From positions 21,552 through 85,551 of the forward strand of contig CAZRYF010000011.1 of assembly GCA_964604165.1 (NCBI GenBank): DNA of 64,000 bases, given 5' to 3'. The stretch is from an uncultured Enterobacterales bacterium (GTDB lineage: Bacteria; Myxococcota_A; UBA796; CAJQPC01). A model generated the notes under the pieces. That model was not told where the DNA came from. It made no database searches and saw only the letters and a program-made list of their open reading frames with translations. This document shows positions 16,137 to 46,358 of the stretch, piece by piece; position 1 is the first letter of the stretch, and each line of letters begins with the position of its first letter. The position numbers and the translations under genes are program-made.

Positions 16137-17326
16137 GCTGCGCGGACCGGCACACGACGCAGGTGAAGGGCAAACCTCGCGGCACAGGCAATCCACAACA
16201 CCATGGCGGAAGGCGCCCAGACAAAGGGGTCCTTGTCGGACACCGGGTGTTGGAGTCCGCTCGCCATCAGCACCCCAATGGAGAGCATCGAAAGGGGAAA
16301 GGACCAGCGAATCGGGTCCCGGGAGGCGGGCCAGCAAACCACCCACCCAATGACCGGCAGGAGCAAAACCGCCTCGTAGTTGGTGTAGCTCATGGCCCCG
16401 TTTGCGCCGAATCCTGCCAGCACCAACCCCATGGCCGCTGCATCCAGCTCCCGGTCAGGTCGCTTGCGCCAAAGAGTCAACATGGGAAGCATCGTGGCCA
16501 AGAGAAGCAGCATGCCCCGTTGACTGAAGATCCACGCAGCAGCTCCGACAATGGGTTCCGCAGGCACCCCATCCACCGTGCCAAACCGGGAATGGGCCAC
16601 CAGGGCCCGGGTGAGGCCCAAGTAACGAAAGGGGTCCCAGGAAGGCACACACCAGAACGTTCCAGCCAGCACCAGCGCCCCCACCCCGACCGCCGCAGCG
16701 AGGATTCGCCAGTGCCGACGCAAACAAACCACGGAAACAAGCACCCCCGGAAGGAGCTTTGCTGCAGCCCCAAGCGCCAAGACCACTCCAGCCGACCGAT
16801 CGCGGGAGCGAGCCACAAGCAGGAGGATCGCGCAGTTGCAGAAGACAAGCACCAGGTTGGTCTGGCCCAGGTCCAGGGAGAGGCGTGTCACGAAGAGACG
16901 GGAAAAAACCAGCAGGCTTCCCATCGCGGCCACCGCCCCCCAGGCCCGACTCCTCACCGGGACCGCAAAAGCCACCAGGGGGGCGCTTCCCACCAGAAGC
17001 ACCAGGAGCACCAGGCGCCAGGCCCTTGCGAGCACCTCAAAGGGAATCTGCCGAAACGGCATCATCAGGAAGCCCCACGTGGCCGGATAGGCGTTGTGGG
17101 AGCTCCAGTGCCGAACCCCCACCTCTCCCAGAATGCGCTGGATGTTCCCCGGGTCGTTTGGATCCACCCCTTGGGCCACGGCATGGGCCCCCGCATAGAC
17201 GGGCACCAGGTCCAGTCCCACCATCGGGGTGGTCAGGGTAGACAAGTCGGCCAGCCCCATGACCTGCCAGGCTGCAACCCCTCCAAGCACCGCCGCCAGG
17301 CACCATGGAAGGGCCTGGTACTTCAC
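16133..17326 (-). CDS. Polytopic membrane glycosyltransferase, GT87/DUF2029-like
   Basis: About 10 TM helices, with DLVPVYAGAHAVAQGVDP near the N-terminus. It has an ATGA overlap with the selD stop. Confidence 0.5.
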   Translation of the reverse strand: MKYQALPWCLAAVLGGVAAWQVMGLADLSTLTTPMVGLDLVPVYAGAHAVAQGVDPNDPGNIQRILGEVGVRHWSSHNAYPATWGFLMMPFRQIPFEVLARAWRLVLLVLLVGSAPLVAFAVPVRSRAWGAVAAMGSLLVFSRLFVTRLSLDLGQTNLVLVFCNCAILLLVARSRDRSAGVVLALGAAAKLLPGVLVSVVCLRRHWRILAAAVGVGALVLAGTFWCVPSWDPFRYLGLTRALVAHSRFGTVDGVPAEPIVGAAAWIFSQRGMLLLLATMLPMLTLWRKRPDRELDAAAMGLVLAGFGANGAMSYTNYEAVLLLPVIGWVVCWPASRDPIRWSFPLSMLSIGVLMASGLQHPVSDKDPFVWAPSAMVLWIACAARFALHLRRVPVRAA

Positions 17327-18366
17327 GGAAAACGCACCCGACTGGGCCCGGCCATGATCTCTCCAATCACGGACACCCCTTGCACGCCAGCCACAACCAG
17401 GGCTTCGGTAAGCTCCTCCACCGCCTCCGGTGCTACGGCCGCGAGCAGTCCCCCGGAGGTCTGCGCATCCGCCAACAAGAGTCGCGTGGTCTCCGGCACC
17501 TCCCCAAATTCCACCCGGTCTTCCACAGACAAAAGATTGGCCCGAGACCCCCCGGGAATACAGTTCTCGGCTGCATGGCGCCGAGCCGATTCCAGAATGG
17601 GCACCGCACCTACCTGCAGATCCGCCCCCACCCCCGAAGCCTCCAACATCTCCAACAAGTGCCCCAACAATCCAAACCCAGTCACATCCGTCAAGGCATG
17701 GACCTTCGTATGGAGCCGGGAAAAGACCTCCCCTGCAGCCCGGTTGAGGGTCGACATCAGGTTCGTGACTTCCTCCCTCTCCGCTTCCGACGCCAGCTCC
17801 CGCTTCAGCGCAGTGGTCACCACCCCGGAGCCCAACGGCTTGGTCAGGATCAAGGCATCCCCCGGTTGCGCTCCAGCATTCGCCAACACGGCGTCGGGCG
17901 AGACAGTCCCCACGACCGCGAGGCCGTACTTGGGAACCGGATCCTCAATGGAGTGACCGCCAATGACCAGCGCCCCTGCAGCATCCACGACATCGGCCCC
18001 TCCACGGAGAATCTCCCCCAAGAGATCCATGGGCAATTCCTTGGTGGGAAAGGCCACCAGGTTCAACGCCACGAGAGGCGTCGCCCCCATGGCCCAGATG
18101 TCGGACAGAGCGTTGGCGGCGGCGATTCGCCCGAAGTCATAGGCATCATCGACCACAGGGGGGAAGAAGTCGGTCGTCACCACGAGCGCGGTGGTCTCGT
18201 TCAGCAGATACACCCCTGCGTCGTCGCGGGTCGAAGAACCCACGAGCACCCTTTCATCGGTAAGGAGCGGCAACTTGCGCAGGACCTGCGCCAACTCCGC
18301 AGGGCGGAGCTTGCTCGCTCAACCAGCGCCGTGGCTGTACCTCGTGAGCTTGTGTCGATCTGACAT
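17323..18366 (-). CDS. selD: Selenide, water dikinase SelD, Sec-containing (TGA 18319-18321 read as U)
   Basis: The body matches SelD throughout (TRDDAGVY, TTDFF, DFGRIAAANALSDIWAMG, GGHSIEDP, TKPLGSG, TDVTGFGLLGHL, QTSGGLL). The frame stays open upstream across one TGA to ATG 18366, giving MSDRHKLTRYSHGAG-U-ASKL. This aligns with E. coli LTQYSHGAGCGCK, with the U at Cys17. Confidence 0.9.
18277..18321 (-). promoter_or_regulatory. UGA recoding site plus SECIS-like hairpins in selD
   Basis: The mRNA after the UGA contains AGCUCCGC-CCU-GCGGAGUU (18293-18311). It is followed by GCGCAG-GUC-CUGCGC (18277-18291), whose loop starts with G about 33 nt after the UGA. Confidence 0.55.
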
Positions 18367-18387
18367 GCCTCGGGAGTAGCCCGAGGC
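18367..18387 (-). promoter_or_regulatory. Perfect 8-bp GC hairpin abutting the selD start codon
   Basis: GCCTCGGG-agtag-CCCGAGGC lies immediately 5' of ATG 18366. It would sequester the only GAGG upstream of the start. It sits in the 62-bp divergent intergenic region shared with the HtrA gene. Confidence 0.35.
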
Positions 18388-18428
18388 CCCGTTTCCGACC
18401 ACCGCACGGCGAGGGTTATGAGGCAGTC

Positions 18429-19670
18429 ATGGGCCTTTGGTTGTTGCTTCTCCAGACCTCTCTTGCTGCGGATCGTCGAACCCCCGTGGTCCTGGCAGTC
18501 GAAGAAGCCACACCGGCTGTGCTGTCCCTCGAGATTGAACAGCCCGCCCAGCCCTCCTTCTACTACCGGTGGGAAGCCCACCCCACCACGGGCCAGGGCA
18601 GCGGGGTGGTGATCTCCCCCGAGGGCGTGGTTCTTACCAACGCCCACGTGGTGGCCGGCGCCGCAAAAATCATAGCCCACACAGGAGAGGGCAGGTCCTT
18701 TCAGGCACGGGTCATCGGCATGGACGAGGATCTCGACCTCGCCGTTCTTCGCCTGGAAGACGTGGAGTACCTCCCGTCCATCACCGTGGACTCGACCACC
18801 CCCATTCTCGGCGAGACCGTGATCGCCATCGGCAACCCCTACGGACTGGGCCTGACCGTCTCCACCGGCGTGGTGTCCTCCGTGTCCCGGGAGGTGGAGA
18901 TCAAGGAAGGAATCAAGCAGCCCTACATCCAAACGGATGCAGCCATCAATCCAGGAAACTCCGGAGGTGCCCTCGTGAATGTCGAGGGTGACCTCATCGG
19001 CATCAACACGGCCATTTTCGCCCAGGGCGAAGGCATCGGATTCGCGATTCCCGCCGAGCGAGCCATGAAGATCGCCCGGGATCTGCTGACCTATGGGTCG
19101 GTGAGAGCCCCCTGGTTGGGAGCCGACCTACAGGACATTGACCGACGAGCACTCGCGGGGACCCCCTTGGAGGAGGGCGCGGTCCGCGTGGCCGGAGTGT
19201 TCCCCGGCGGTCCGGCAGCCACCGCCGGACTTGAGAAGAAGGACCTGCTCTTCCGCGCCGACAACCGCCCGATCCGCTCCCGTGCGGATCTCAACGCCTA
19301 CCTGGCGACCCTGGAACCCGGTGCGGACATTTCCCTGTCCCTCTACCGGAACACCCAGTCAATTGTGCTCTCCCTGCCTTCCATGGCCATCCCACAAGAC
19401 CTGGGAAGCCGGGTACTTCACAAGACCCTGGGTATCTCCGTGCAGCCACGCAGTGGCGGACTCACGGTCACGGCCGCGAGCCCGACGGGCACATGGGTGC
19501 GGTCACGCCTTCGGGTGGGAGACCGAATCGTGGCAATCAACGGGGAGCGAATTCAAACGGAGAAGGAGCTGGCCGATGCCCTCACCCGCGCCAAGGCAGC
19601 CCATCGACCAAGCGCCCTGTTCACCGTGACCCGGGGACGGTCCCAGGGGACGCTGGTGGTTTCGATCTAG
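18429..19670 (+). CDS. HtrA/DegP-family periplasmic serine protease with two PDZ domains
   Basis: TNAHVV, DLAVL and the catalytic GNSGGAL, followed by two PDZ-like segments. It has a short signal peptide and a GAGG Shine-Dalgarno 5 nt upstream. Confidence 0.9.
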   Translation: MGLWLLLLQTSLAADRRTPVVLAVEEATPAVLSLEIEQPAQPSFYYRWEAHPTTGQGSGVVISPEGVVLTNAHVVAGAAKIIAHTGEGRSFQARVIGMDEDLDLAVLRLEDVEYLPSITVDSTTPILGETVIAIGNPYGLGLTVSTGVVSSVSREVEIKEGIKQPYIQTDAAINPGNSGGALVNVEGDLIGINTAIFAQGEGIGFAIPAERAMKIARDLLTYGSVRAPWLGADLQDIDRRALAGTPLEEGAVRVAGVFPGGPAATAGLEKKDLLFRADNRPIRSRADLNAYLATLEPGADISLSLYRNTQSIVLSLPSMAIPQDLGSRVLHKTLGISVQPRSGGLTVTAASPTGTWVRSRLRVGDRIVAINGERIQTEKELADALTRAKAAHRPSALFTVTRGRSQGTLVVSI

Positions 19671-31379: not shown

Positions 31380-32243
31380 TCAGGACACCATCGAGGGCTG
31401 TCGCCTGTCCAGCCAGGGCGTCCACCAGCCCACCGTCAACGGAAGGTAGAACACCATCATGCCGACGGAGAACATACCCAGCTTCATGCTCCAGGCGATC
31501 CCTACGTGCAACACCATAATCGGCGGAATCCAGTAGCGACTCCAGCGCGTAAGAAGGAGGAAGGCGGAGAGCTCCAACGCAATGGTTCCCCAGCCCAGCG
31601 CACGCAGCAGCCACCACCAGGGGGCAGCGGCGAGAGGATCCAGGCTTGATGCCATGGGATCTGCCAGGATGCGGTAGAGAACGGGCATGCCACTCACCGC
31701 GAGCCAGCCCGGCTGTTGGGCCAGCTTGGCGACACCTGCGGACGTGTAAACAAGGACCAACATCCATCGGAGCAGAATCAAGGGCCAAGCCCCCACCTGG
31801 TCGGCCGGCGCCCCCGGGGCAAAGGACCACCTCCTGTGGCTGCCCGAGAAGAGAAGAAAGAGCAGCACCGTTCGCAGCATCCGGTCAATGCCGCGATCCC
31901 CTGGTGGGTACAAGTGCCCCAGTTGGGCCCACAGCAGCACTGAGATCAGAATGGCCGGCCGGGTGCCCACCCCCAAAAGCACGCAAACAAGGGCCCCGAG
32001 GGTCAGGAAAAAGACCGGCGGCCCCATGGTGGCCGGGTCAATCCAAAGAGACGGATCGGAGAAACCGGAGAGCCCCCCGGCTGCAAAACTCCTGTACATC
32101 ACGTCCACCCAACCCAGGTGGGCCACCCGTGCCAGGTCCAGAATCGCCACCAATGCCACCGCAATGCGCAGGGCGGCCAAGGCCCGGGCATCCACGGTCC
32201 GCCCACATCGCTCCACCCAGAGCTGCCAGGCCCGGAGAATCAT
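31380..32243 (-). CDS. HTTM-domain (vitamin K-dependent gamma-carboxylase-like; SdpB-family fold) membrane protein
   Basis: ORF trimmed to ATG 32243 (ATGA overlap with the upstream stop). It has VDARALAALRIAVALVAILDL at the N-terminus and is a polytopic, Trp-rich membrane protein. Confidence 0.65.
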   Translation of the reverse strand: MILRAWQLWVERCGRTVDARALAALRIAVALVAILDLARVAHLGWVDVMYRSFAAGGLSGFSDPSLWIDPATMGPPVFFLTLGALVCVLLGVGTRPAILISVLLWAQLGHLYPPGDRGIDRMLRTVLLFLLFSGSHRRWSFAPGAPADQVGAWPLILLRWMLVLVYTSAGVAKLAQQPGWLAVSGMPVLYRILADPMASSLDPLAAAPWWWLLRALGWGTIALELSAFLLLTRWSRYWIPPIMVLHVGIAWSMKLGMFSVGMMVFYLPLTVGWWTPWLDRRQPSMVS

Positions 32244-44440: not shown

Positions 44441-44690
44441 TTCCCAATTTTGTTTCCGCTCTAAAGGTTGCTGTGAGCATTTTTTCTGCCTGGAGGCCGA
44501 AGTGAATCGTCGCATTCTTGTCCCTCTTGTTGTCCTGGTTGGCCTCATCGGCGTCGGAAGTCTCCTCGAATACACCGGCCGCATGGGGTCTCGCTCCGGC
44601 ACCGGATGAGCCGCGGGACTCTCCGGGTACGCCGGCGGATGCGCGGGAAGCATCGGCGATCTGCCTGCGGAGCTCCCGGAAGACATTGAG

Positions 44691-46358
44691 TTGGGTTTGG
44701 CCCTGCCCAAGAGCACAGGGGGAGACGCTCCTGAGATTGACATCGACGCGGATGTGATCCCCGGCCAGTTCACCATCAAGTTCAGGGATCGAGCCTCCCT
44801 CCCAGACCTGGCCAGAATCGGAGCCGCCGCGAGGCTTGGTACCGGCAACGATGATCTGGACGTTGTCCTCGTAGACCTGCCGGGATTTCACATGCAGGGG
44901 CTGCTGGAAGACAAGGCGGATGATCTGCAGCCTGGACAGGACTTTGGGCTGGAGCGAGCCTTCTTGCTGGAGACAGATCTCGATGCAAAGGATGTGTTCC
45001 AGCAGCTGAACCGCTTCCAGGAGATCGAGTGGATCGAACCCGTACGCCAGGTGCAAGCTCTGGGTTCGGCCCCCAACGATCCCTACTACGGATTCCAGTG
45101 GAACATGTCGCTTCAGGGCGTTTCGACGGCCTGGGACAACAGCAGAGGCGACGGGGCAGTCGTGGCCGTGATTGACACGGGAGTCACCTCGGGACCCGAC
45201 GGAATCTCCAACCTGCTGGCCGGCTACGACTTTGTCGATAATGACACCGATGCATCCGACGAAAACGGGCATGGCACCCACGTGGCGGGCACCATTGCCC
45301 AGAACACAAACAACGGGGTCGGCGTCGCAGGCATGGCGCCGGACGCCTCGATTCTTCCAGTGCGCGTACTGGATGCGGACGGAGTGGGCAGCACAGCTGG
45401 CGTGGCCCAGGGCGTTCTTTGGGCCGCAAGCCAAGGCGCACACATCATCAATTTGAGCCTTGGGGGCGACAGCTACTCCCAAGTGTTGGCGGACGCCATT
45501 GATGACGTCACAGCCATGGGCGTCTTGGTGGTCGCAGCCACCGGAAACGAGGACTACCAGAACTTTGTCGCCTTTCCAGGCTCCTTGTCCAACACCTTGG
45601 CAGTGGGCGCAACCGGTCTGAACCAGACCCGGGCGCCCTACAGCAACCGGGGCCCGGAGATTGAATTGAGCGCCCCGGGGGGAGACTTGACTGTGGATGC
45701 AGACGGCGATGGCTACCCAGACGGAATCCTTCAAGAAACCACTGTCGACGGCCAGACCAGCTACTGGTTCTTTGAAGGCACGTCCATGGCCACTCCCCAT
45801 GTGTCCGCAGCAGCCGCCCTGCTGTACGGCCAGGGCATGACCCACCCGGACGAGATTCGTTCCTTGCTCATCAGCAGTGCTGACGACCTGGCCGGTGCAG
45901 GGTGGGACTCAGGAACGGGCTTCGGGGGCCTGAACGTCATGAGCGCCATGGAGGCGGCCATCGCCCAACAGGAACAGGCCGAAGAGGAGGTGGATGAGGA
46001 GGTGGATGAAGAAGAAGAGGAAGCCTCCCAAGACCCGGAGACCGAAGCCCCCCTGCCCGGCGAACCCACCAAAGGAAGTGAGGGAGAGATCTGGAAGGTG
46101 CGGGTCCACCTGCTGAACCCCTACACCGCGGCGGTCCGCTGGATGACCACAATGCCCGGGACGACCGAGTACAGTGGTCTTGACGGCATCACCGTTGTGA
46201 GCAAGGAGCGTTCGCGCATCCACAAGGTGCTGGTCAAGGTAGAAGAGGATGTCGGTGAGGAGATCACGGTGATCTCCAGGTTCAACTCGCCCCCAAACAC
46301 CATGGCCACCGCTACCCGAGAAATCCACTTTGGAGGGGAACAAACCGAGAGCGAGTAG
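44691..46358 (+). CDS. Subtilisin-like S8 serine protease (body; a signal peptide lies upstream across an in-frame TGA at 44607-44609, so the possible full gene is 44502..46358)
   Basis: Catalytic triad motifs VAVIDTG, HGTHVAG and GTSMATPHV, with an I9-like propeptide. The listed ORF has no signal peptide. GTG 44502 (GGAGG 5 nt upstream) encodes MNRRILVPLVVLVGLIGVGSLL in the same frame. Confidence 0.85.
   Translation: MGLALPKSTGGDAPEIDIDADVIPGQFTIKFRDRASLPDLARIGAAARLGTGNDDLDVVLVDLPGFHMQGLLEDKADDLQPGQDFGLERAFLLETDLDAKDVFQQLNRFQEIEWIEPVRQVQALGSAPNDPYYGFQWNMSLQGVSTAWDNSRGDGAVVAVIDTGVTSGPDGISNLLAGYDFVDNDTDASDENGHGTHVAGTIAQNTNNGVGVAGMAPDASILPVRVLDADGVGSTAGVAQGVLWAASQGAHIINLSLGGDSYSQVLADAIDDVTAMGVLVVAATGNEDYQNFVAFPGSLSNTLAVGATGLNQTRAPYSNRGPEIELSAPGGDLTVDADGDGYPDGILQETTVDGQTSYWFFEGTSMATPHVSAAAALLYGQGMTHPDEIRSLLISSADDLAGAGWDSGTGFGGLNVMSAMEAAIAQQEQAEEEVDEEVDEEEEEASQDPETEAPLPGEPTKGSEGEIWKVRVHLLNPYTAAVRWMTTMPGTTEYSGLDGITVVSKERSRIHKVLVKVEEDVGEEITVISRFNSPPNTMATATREIHFGGEQTESE

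Follow-up and report, generated by a model that had tools for sequence, protein, structure and literature searches.

In E. coli SelD the loop that contains Sec/Cys17 and Lys20 is essential, and the SelD of Haemophilus influenzae is the classical selenocysteine (Sec)-containing form of the enzyme. No bacterial selenoprotein families are more widespread than SelD and FdhA (PMC1794560, PMC9312934), and Sec-decoding organisms without FdhA all have a Sec-type SelD (PMC1794560; PMC9312934). Sec-containing SelD has been listed for many Deltaproteobacteria, Clostridia and Actinobacteria (PMC1794560, Table 3). Here we analyse the selD gene at positions 17323-18366 on the minus strand of a 64-kb stretch of DNA from an uncultured bacterium (64,000 nucleotides (nt) of contig CAZRYF010000011.1, hereafter the window). 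An initial annotation had claimed that this gene encodes a selenoprotein and that the ORF track had missed an in-frame TGA at the catalytic position. Our comparison of the locus with described SelD proteins makes it very likely that the gene is a functional selD with Sec, encoded by UGA 18319-18321, as its catalytic residue 16; Sec insertion itself we infer from the sequence.

An in-frame UGA at the catalytic position of selD

The gene and its alternative starts are laid out as follows.

17323-18366, minus strand: full-length selD, selenide, water dikinase, with predicted Sec at residue 16; 347 codons plus stop; matches TIGR00476 and the E. coli SelD structure 3u0o
18364-18366, minus strand: ATG start codon, matched in position by an ATG in each of the ten Sec-type relatives and giving an N-terminus of the same length as that of E. 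coli SelD
18319-18321, minus strand: in-frame UGA, putative Sec codon (codon 16), equivalent to E. coli Cys17 in the alignment to 3u0o
18292-18294, minus strand: TTG start in the gene calls, an artefact of halting at the UGA; it opens the 323-amino acid (aa) product of the mechanical open reading frame (ORF) list

Read on the minus strand, selD runs from the ATG (18366-18364) through 14 more sense codons to the TGA (18321-18319) and on to a stop codon at 17325-17323, and the nearest in-frame stop 5' of the ATG lies 20 codons before it. Translation from the ATG gives MSDRHKLTRYSHGAG*ASKLRPAELAQVLRKLP..., where the asterisk marks the TGA. The layout given in the initial annotation (ATG 18366, TGA 18319-18321 and a track start at TTG 18294) and its translation agree with the DNA in every statement. 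With the TGA read as Cys, the 347-residue protein scored 392 bits against TIGR00476 (cutoff 125), profile positions 1-310 matching residues 6-315, and 374.8 bits against the equivalog model NF002098 (cutoff 299), so that its assignment to SelD is borne out from the first position of the profile. The closest solved structure was that of E. coli SelD (Protein Data Bank entry 3u0o, E = 8e-79), in which chain residues 6-335 aligned with residues 5-338 of the query. This alignment is gap-free at the N-terminus, and therefore codon 16 corresponds to Cys17, as had been proposed for the UGA, and K19 to Lys20. The HGAG-U-ASK segment of the window protein pairs with HGAG-C-GCK of E. coli, a loop that exists only if the UGA is read through. 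The motifs TRDDA, TTDFF, SDI.AMG and TDVTGFG also align with E. coli SelD.

The 24 residues 5' of the TTG were examined on their own. Among 18,950 NCBIfam families they matched only SelD models (NF002098, E = 3e-4, positions 4-24), and the match persisted with X at the Sec position; the upstream codons do align to SelD N-termini, as the initial annotation had held. The truncated ORF that starts at the TTG matched TIGR00476 from profile position 20 only and scored 363 bits, 29 bits lower than the full-length protein, which confirms that the shorter call loses the catalytic loop. AIRS and AIRS_C domains (PF00586, PF02769) are on record for P0001, a stored product identical to the truncated call. 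The codon-usage score of the 15-codon extension was -0.13, a value that carries no weight over so few codons. On every testable measure of membership, the gene belongs with SelD and with bacterial selenoprotein genes, and its enzyme activity is predicted.

Conservation of the UGA across relatives

Relatives of the window gene came mainly from a protein search and contig look-ups; the scans of reference-genome and metagenome contigs yielded one to two close relatives. The closest relative in the one-genome-per-species references, L001 (88% aa identity), shares its ATG, N-terminus and TGA with the window gene. DNA was inspected for nine further relatives with short protein calls (L157-L165, 65-86% identity), and 9/9 have the ATG, the N-terminus in conserved form and, at the corresponding codon, an in-frame TGA. 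Together these make ten Sec-type relatives (65-88% identity) with no frame disruption, in which the ATG-to-TGA distance is 13-15 codons. A TGA also occupies the Cys17 codon in L005, L081 and L083, in Clostridia and Fermentibacteria loci and in Acidimicrobiia SelDs; the codon is TGC or TGT in L002-L004, L009, L082, L115 and L166-L169.

Stored protein calls consistently miss the N-terminus. In the four closest clusters (P0001-P0004, from JGI, NCBI, ENA and Logan), 16/16 calls are truncated to 323 aa or shorter, and 0/16 carry the Sec N-terminus. The window product is stored in a large protein collection (5.8 billion) solely as the 323-aa P0001. Matches in this collection at 60-88% identity are mostly 307-326 aa long, a signature of truncation, and those of 345-358 aa are Cys-type.

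A misread or misassembled TGC or TGT was considered as the origin of the TGA, but the same TGA occurs in independent assemblies from JGI, ENA, NCBI and Logan, which in effect refutes this explanation and leaves it a negligible probability. Elsewhere in the window TGA is an ordinary stop, ending at least 14 family-supported ORFs. The conservation of the ATG, N-terminus and TGA, together with this ordinary use of TGA, therefore excludes a pseudogene, a sequencing error and code reassignment alike. If the UGA were a true stop, selD would be a pseudogene or would yield only a truncated protein from TTG 18294. The gene callers do give exactly the 323-aa product, and the window yielded no Sec machinery. 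Against this, ten relatives down to 65% identity conserve the ATG, the 15 codons before the TGA and the TGA itself in an intact frame, and the extension by itself matches SelD profiles. The truncated product would be without the Sec/Cys17 and Lys20 loop, and a GGAG directly abuts the TTG with no spacer, which is a poor ribosome-binding arrangement. We regard a true stop as highly improbable.

Two hairpins after the UGA

Bacterial selenocysteine insertion sequence (bSECIS) elements have been modelled as a stem of 4-16 bp with a loop of 3-9 nt, a UGA-to-loop spacing of 16-37 nt and a minimum free energy (MFE) of at most -7.5 kcal/mol (PMC13188914, Fig. 2). The loop has a G in its first two positions and usually reads N1-G-[G/U]-N-N2 (PMC13188914). 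Two hairpins follow the UGA of the window gene, at positions counted here in nt from the UGA.

18293-18311, minus strand: hairpin 1, AGCUCCGC-CCU-GCGGAGUU, +8 to +26 with its loop at +16 to +18, -10.8 kcal/mol
18277-18291, minus strand: hairpin 2, GCGCAG-GUC-CUGCGC, candidate SelB-binding SECIS apex, +28 to +42 with its loop at +34 to +36, -8.0 kcal/mol

Compliance with the bSECIS model was scored with our own simplified scanner, not with bSECISearch. Hairpin 2 fits the model on all four counts, with a 3-nt loop (GUC), a 6-bp stem, a spacing of 33 nt and an energy of -8.0 kcal/mol; its loop reads G-U-N, or G-GUC-C if the closing G-C pair is included. Hairpin 1 departs from the model in two respects, in that its loop, CCU, lacks a G and its spacing of 15 nt falls just outside the range. 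The initial annotation had described two hairpins, the second being GCGCAG-GUC-CUGCGC with a loop that starts with G after 33 nt, and both were found as described. Its further proposal that hairpin 2 is SECIS-like also stands. As to the hairpin that SelB would bind, hairpin 2 is the better fit to the bSECIS model, but hairpin 1 is the one with compensatory changes and with its loop where other Sec-type SelD genes have theirs. An alternative hairpin, CCUGCG-GAGUUGG-CGCAGG (spacing 21 nt, -9.5 kcal/mol), was ruled out; its 5' arm is unconserved in L005 and it excludes both conserved hairpins.

The DNA around the UGA is constrained beyond its coding content. The selD genes of the window and L001 share 85% of their nt, and of the codon differences between them 92 are synonymous and 41 non-synonymous. 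Yet over nt 16-105 of the gene, a segment that takes in the UGA (nt 46-48) and the two hairpins, their identity is 100%. No identical run in the gene is longer, and the chance of a 90-nt identical run, given the third-position divergence elsewhere, is P about 4e-6. When the codons of ten clade members were aligned, the fraction of synonymous differences was 0.15 for codons 11-20 and 0.22 for codons 21-30, compared to 0.52 overall, and these were the two lowest 10-codon blocks of selD. The low synonymous divergence near the UGA therefore points to an overlapping RNA element; a synonymous trough at the recoding site indicates, with the signature expected of it, a putative functional RNA element within the coding sequence.

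Both hairpins are well kept in the clade. In every Sec-type member hairpin 2 has 100% of its bases paired, and it breaks only in a Cys-type gene. Its stems do not vary, save for a C to U change that leaves a G·U pair in L165 and in L005. The sole freely varying synonymous site of hairpin 2 is the third position of the loop (C, U or G). For hairpin 1, 95.5% of cells in the alignment are paired, with the top two pairs broken in L161, L163 and L164. When three Cys-type sequences are added, two pairs of hairpin 1 show compensatory double changes, from C-G to G-C in four sequences and from C-G to A-U in one. Pairing was 96-97% overall, and 0/500 shuffles equalled the observed pairing or covariation score, a comparison to be read with the caveat that the sequences are related. 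In the MFE fold, an outer stem that begins right after the UGA encloses hairpins 1 and 2. The 48 nt after the codon, scored for structure against the rest of the gene, had a mean z of -1.56 in Sec-type SelDs (60% below -1.5) compared to -0.73 in 103 distant Cys-type SelDs (21% below -1.5).

Based on these observations, we propose that translation would begin at ATG 18366 and that, at the UGA, SECIS RNA within the next ~45 nt of coding sequence would recruit SelB with Sec-tRNA(Sec), so that Sec would be inserted without termination. The product, a selenophosphate synthetase of 347 residues, would have its glycine-rich loop, HGAG-U-ASK, complete. Hairpin 2, whose loop lies 33 nt after the UGA, would most likely be the SelB-binding apex, and hairpin 1, between the UGA and hairpin 2, would be a conserved part of the element. 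The UGA might instead be read through without Sec machinery, by near-cognate insertion of Trp or Cys or under a reassigned code, and it is true that Sec machinery in this genome is deduced only indirectly. This explanation is very unlikely, since the code is not reassigned, as shown by the window genes that end in TGA, and since the UGA lies exactly at the catalytic Cys/Sec site and has after it a hairpin that is conserved, complies with the model and is under synonymous constraint, as SelB-dependent decoding predicts.

Several observations weigh against Sec insertion at this UGA through hairpin 2. Compliance with the bSECIS model is weakly specific: 114/1,441 TGAs in the GC-rich window (~8%) pass the simplified scanner, as do 23/110 Cys-type SelDs and 9/15 Sec-type SelDs. 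Hairpin 2 barely clears the energy threshold (-8.0 vs -7.5 kcal/mol), its spacing of 33 nt is at the long end of the model range, and the clade alignment showed no covariation in it. The peptide that it encodes, AQVLR, is also found in Cys-type relatives, and GC-rich genomes naturally encode it with a palindrome. Cys-type genes L166, L167 and L169 largely keep both hairpins after their TGC, so the structure is not exclusive to Sec decoding. Rfam gave no family at the gathering threshold in the window and, at E <= 10, nothing besides a chance snoRNA match in 18100-18500. The Rfam result is uninformative because bacterial SECIS elements are poorly modelled, being too diverse for one model (PMC12013277, PMC13188914). 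No selA, selB or selC/tRNA-Sec was found within the 64-kb window or in ~150 kb of the relatives' flanks: a tRNA scan of the window and of the loci of 12 relatives detected no tRNA gene at all, none of the ~45 window ORFs scanned is selA, selB, selU or yedE/yedF, and the Pfam lists of the relatives' flanks contain no Sec machinery. Nor is there a second convincing selenoprotein gene in the window, or any in the relatives' flanks. The initial annotation had called the Sec-decoding trait established. The conserved, constrained UGA strongly suggests that selA, selB and selC are present in the genome, but this falls short of a demonstration while none of the three lies in the window or the relatives' flanks.

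The Cys-type genes that keep the hairpins were compared in the following regions.

L166, 1043-1108; L167, 1058-1123; L169, 1037-1102: Cys-type selD regions encoding ...GAGCACKLG..ELAQVLRH, with SECIS-like hairpins after the TGC

The ...ELAQVLR peptide, whose codons form hairpin 2, is present in many Cys-type relatives, and a purely RNA-driven conservation of this peptide was ruled out because these relatives have it too. Hairpin 2 is intact in L169, G·U-closed in L167 and has lost two pairs in L166. In hairpin 1, L166 has GGA/UCC and L167 and L169 have GGC/GCC, compared to CGC/GCG in the window, and this compensation alters amino acids, placing Gly...Ser or Ala where the window has Arg...Ala. 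The structure z of the 48 nt in the three genes is -0.9 to -1.3. Remnant SECIS-like structures after Sec-to-Cys conversion have been described (PMC1794560, Fig. 4 and text), and L166, L167 and L169 resemble these in keeping hairpins 1 and 2 after the TGC. They differ in that hairpin 1 is upheld by compensatory substitutions that change amino acids, which hints at continuing selection rather than decay. The hairpins in these genes are thus either SECIS remnants of Sec ancestors or structures with a Sec-independent function.

Other Sec-type SelD lineages have one hairpin, with a loop of CGGGU, GGU or GGC at +17 to +25, the position of hairpin 1. The Fermentibacteria-type selD genes, which are Sec-type (L011-L013, L085-L088 and L110), have a different, single hairpin, CCCGCCA-GGC-UGGCGGG, whose loop comes 22 nt after the UGA and which shows the compensatory variants CCCGCAA/UUGCGGG and CCUGCCA/UGGCAGG. 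L081 and L083, nearer to the window clade, have single hairpins of their own with GGU and CGGGU loops. The SECIS architecture has thus undergone repeated remodelling within SelD.

The position of these single loops raises the question of which hairpin SelB would bind. SelB may recognise hairpin 1, or a composite two-hairpin fold with a three-way junction, and hairpin 2 would then be a by-product of the GC-rich coding of A-Q-V-L-R. Besides the loop position in other lineages, hairpin 1 is the more stable of the two (-10.8 kcal/mol) and the sole one in which compensatory double changes were seen, Cys-type genes too have the AQVLR peptide and the greater part of hairpin 2, and the outer stem of the MFE fold takes in both hairpins. 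However, hairpin 1 has the loop and spacing that depart from the published model (PMC13188914), and its top two pairs are broken in three Sec-type relatives, whereas hairpin 2 is intact in every Sec-type member and breaks only in a Cys-type gene. The 5' arm of hairpin 1 begins 8 nt after the UGA and would probably be melted in a ribosome with the UGA in its A site. The retention of hairpin 1, with compensation, in Cys-type genes also argues that it is not Sec-specific. Recognition of hairpin 1 or of the composite fold is possible but the less likely arrangement, and hairpin 2 remains our preferred candidate for the SelB-binding apex.

Flanking sequences, other TGAs and comparison with known systems

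Two features flank selD.

18367-18387, minus strand: 5' leader hairpin GCCUCGGG-CUACU-CCCGAGGC, 8 bp, ending directly at the AUG; the same in L001
16133-17326, minus strand: gene for a GT87-family membrane glycosyltransferase (PF09594, 62.8 bits), whose GTG overlaps the selD stop (GTGA)

The leader hairpin holds the only Shine-Dalgarno-like sequence, GAGG, 1 nt from the selD start. It is identical in L001, where the sequence further 5' is unrelated, and in L165 its place is taken by an 8-bp hairpin whose sequence is unrelated. The leader blocks GGUGGUC (18397-18403) and GGCUAC (18376-18381) are conserved in L001, L157, L158, L160 and L162, and the leader has no Rfam match. The leader may serve translational control, or may be the promoter of an mRNA with a short leader. 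It is doubtful that the RNA around the selD start (hairpin 1, the hairpin abutting the AUG, and hairpin 2) acts as a translational control element beyond SECIS, with hairpin 2 alone serving Sec insertion; in favour of this reading are the compensatory, amino-acid-changing upkeep of hairpin 1 in Sec-type and Cys-type genes and the leader hairpin, which L165 has in structure though not in sequence. By analogy with the E. coli selAB leader, which has a SECIS-like element, such control could be a SelB- or selenium-responsive autoregulation.

Downstream, the GTG of the GT87 gene overlaps the selD stop, so the two genes are probably co-transcribed. The order selD, GT87 and an ORF of ~175 aa is conserved in L157, L158, L159 and L160 and, judged by ORF sizes, also in L001. 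The usual neighbour of selD is selU/ybbB, and we know of no link between GT87 glycosyltransferases and selenium. The neighbouring ORFs of L001 (CAZSZE010000093.1) match those of the window in size and order (412, 323 and 397 aa). The label of its metagenome-assembled genome, 'uncultured Enterobacterales bacterium', looks unreliable for a genome whose selD is 88% identical to that of the 63% GC window; other selD relatives are labelled Deltaproteobacteria, Myxococcales or Acidimicrobiia.

The window was also scanned for TGAs with coding signal on both sides, and only those at 31380 (minus strand) and 44607 (plus strand) stood out. The first, 31380-31382, was rejected as a read-through TGA; although it resembles a candidate when ORFs are scanned from stop to stop, it is an ordinary boundary at which an HTTM-domain gene is followed, in the same frame, by a HAMP/GGDEF diguanylate cyclase gene starting from a GTG two codons on. 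The second lies within 44502-46358 (plus strand), where a 35-codon ORF starts from GTG 44502, with GGAGG 5 nt upstream, encodes a signal-peptide-like sequence (RRILVPLVVLVGLIGVG...) and ends at TGA 44607-44609. This short ORF is in frame with a Peptidase_S8 subtilase ORF (PF00082, 193 bits), which lacks a signal peptide of its own and cannot start before TTG 44691. What follows TGA 44607 is not a model-compliant SECIS but only a 4-bp hairpin of -5.5 kcal/mol, and a homology search with the subtilase N-terminus read through this TGA found no homologues. The region could reflect a disrupted gene, an error or recoding.

Going by the present annotation, one would judge the SelD enzyme inactive or odd; correcting the call gives back a selenoprotein of 347 residues. 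From a Sec-type SelD it follows that UGA is decoded as Sec in this uncultured lineage, and therefore other in-frame TGAs in the genome deserve homology-based checking. The two-hairpin arrangement, with its partial retention in Cys-type relatives, adds a small data point on the variation and decay of bacterial SECIS elements. SelD proteins with Sec have been on record from many phyla for two decades, so that the present case is an annotation fix and leaves current understanding unchanged.

The window protein aligns end to end with E. coli SelD and shares with it the motifs LT.YSHGAG-C/U-..K, TRDDA, TTDFF, SDI.AMG and TDVTGFGL; the E. coli protein differs in having Cys in place of Sec and no SECIS requirement. 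In comparison with the SECIS of E. coli fdhF, the window likewise has, within its coding sequence and immediately 3' of the UGA, a stem-loop with a small apical loop of G then U, and GCAG-GUC-CUGC of hairpin 2 is close to the fdhF apex, GCA-GGUC-UGC. In contrast, the UGA-to-loop distance is 33 nt in the window compared to about 18 nt in fdhF, and the window has an extra conserved hairpin in between and no bulged U. Like other Sec-type bacterial SelDs, the window gene has a UGA at the Cys17 equivalent in the N-terminal glycine-rich loop, hairpin-rich sequence directly 3' of it and a PurM-like AIRS/AIRS_C fold, and is a gene of the kind typically truncated by callers. It differs from them in its origin in an uncultured, sparsely sampled, GC-rich clade, in which the nearest reference match is 88% identical and the next 62%; in its element of two tandem hairpins with the compliant loop at a long 33-nt spacing; and in its atypical partner, a downstream GT87 glycosyltransferase gene rather than selU/ybbB.

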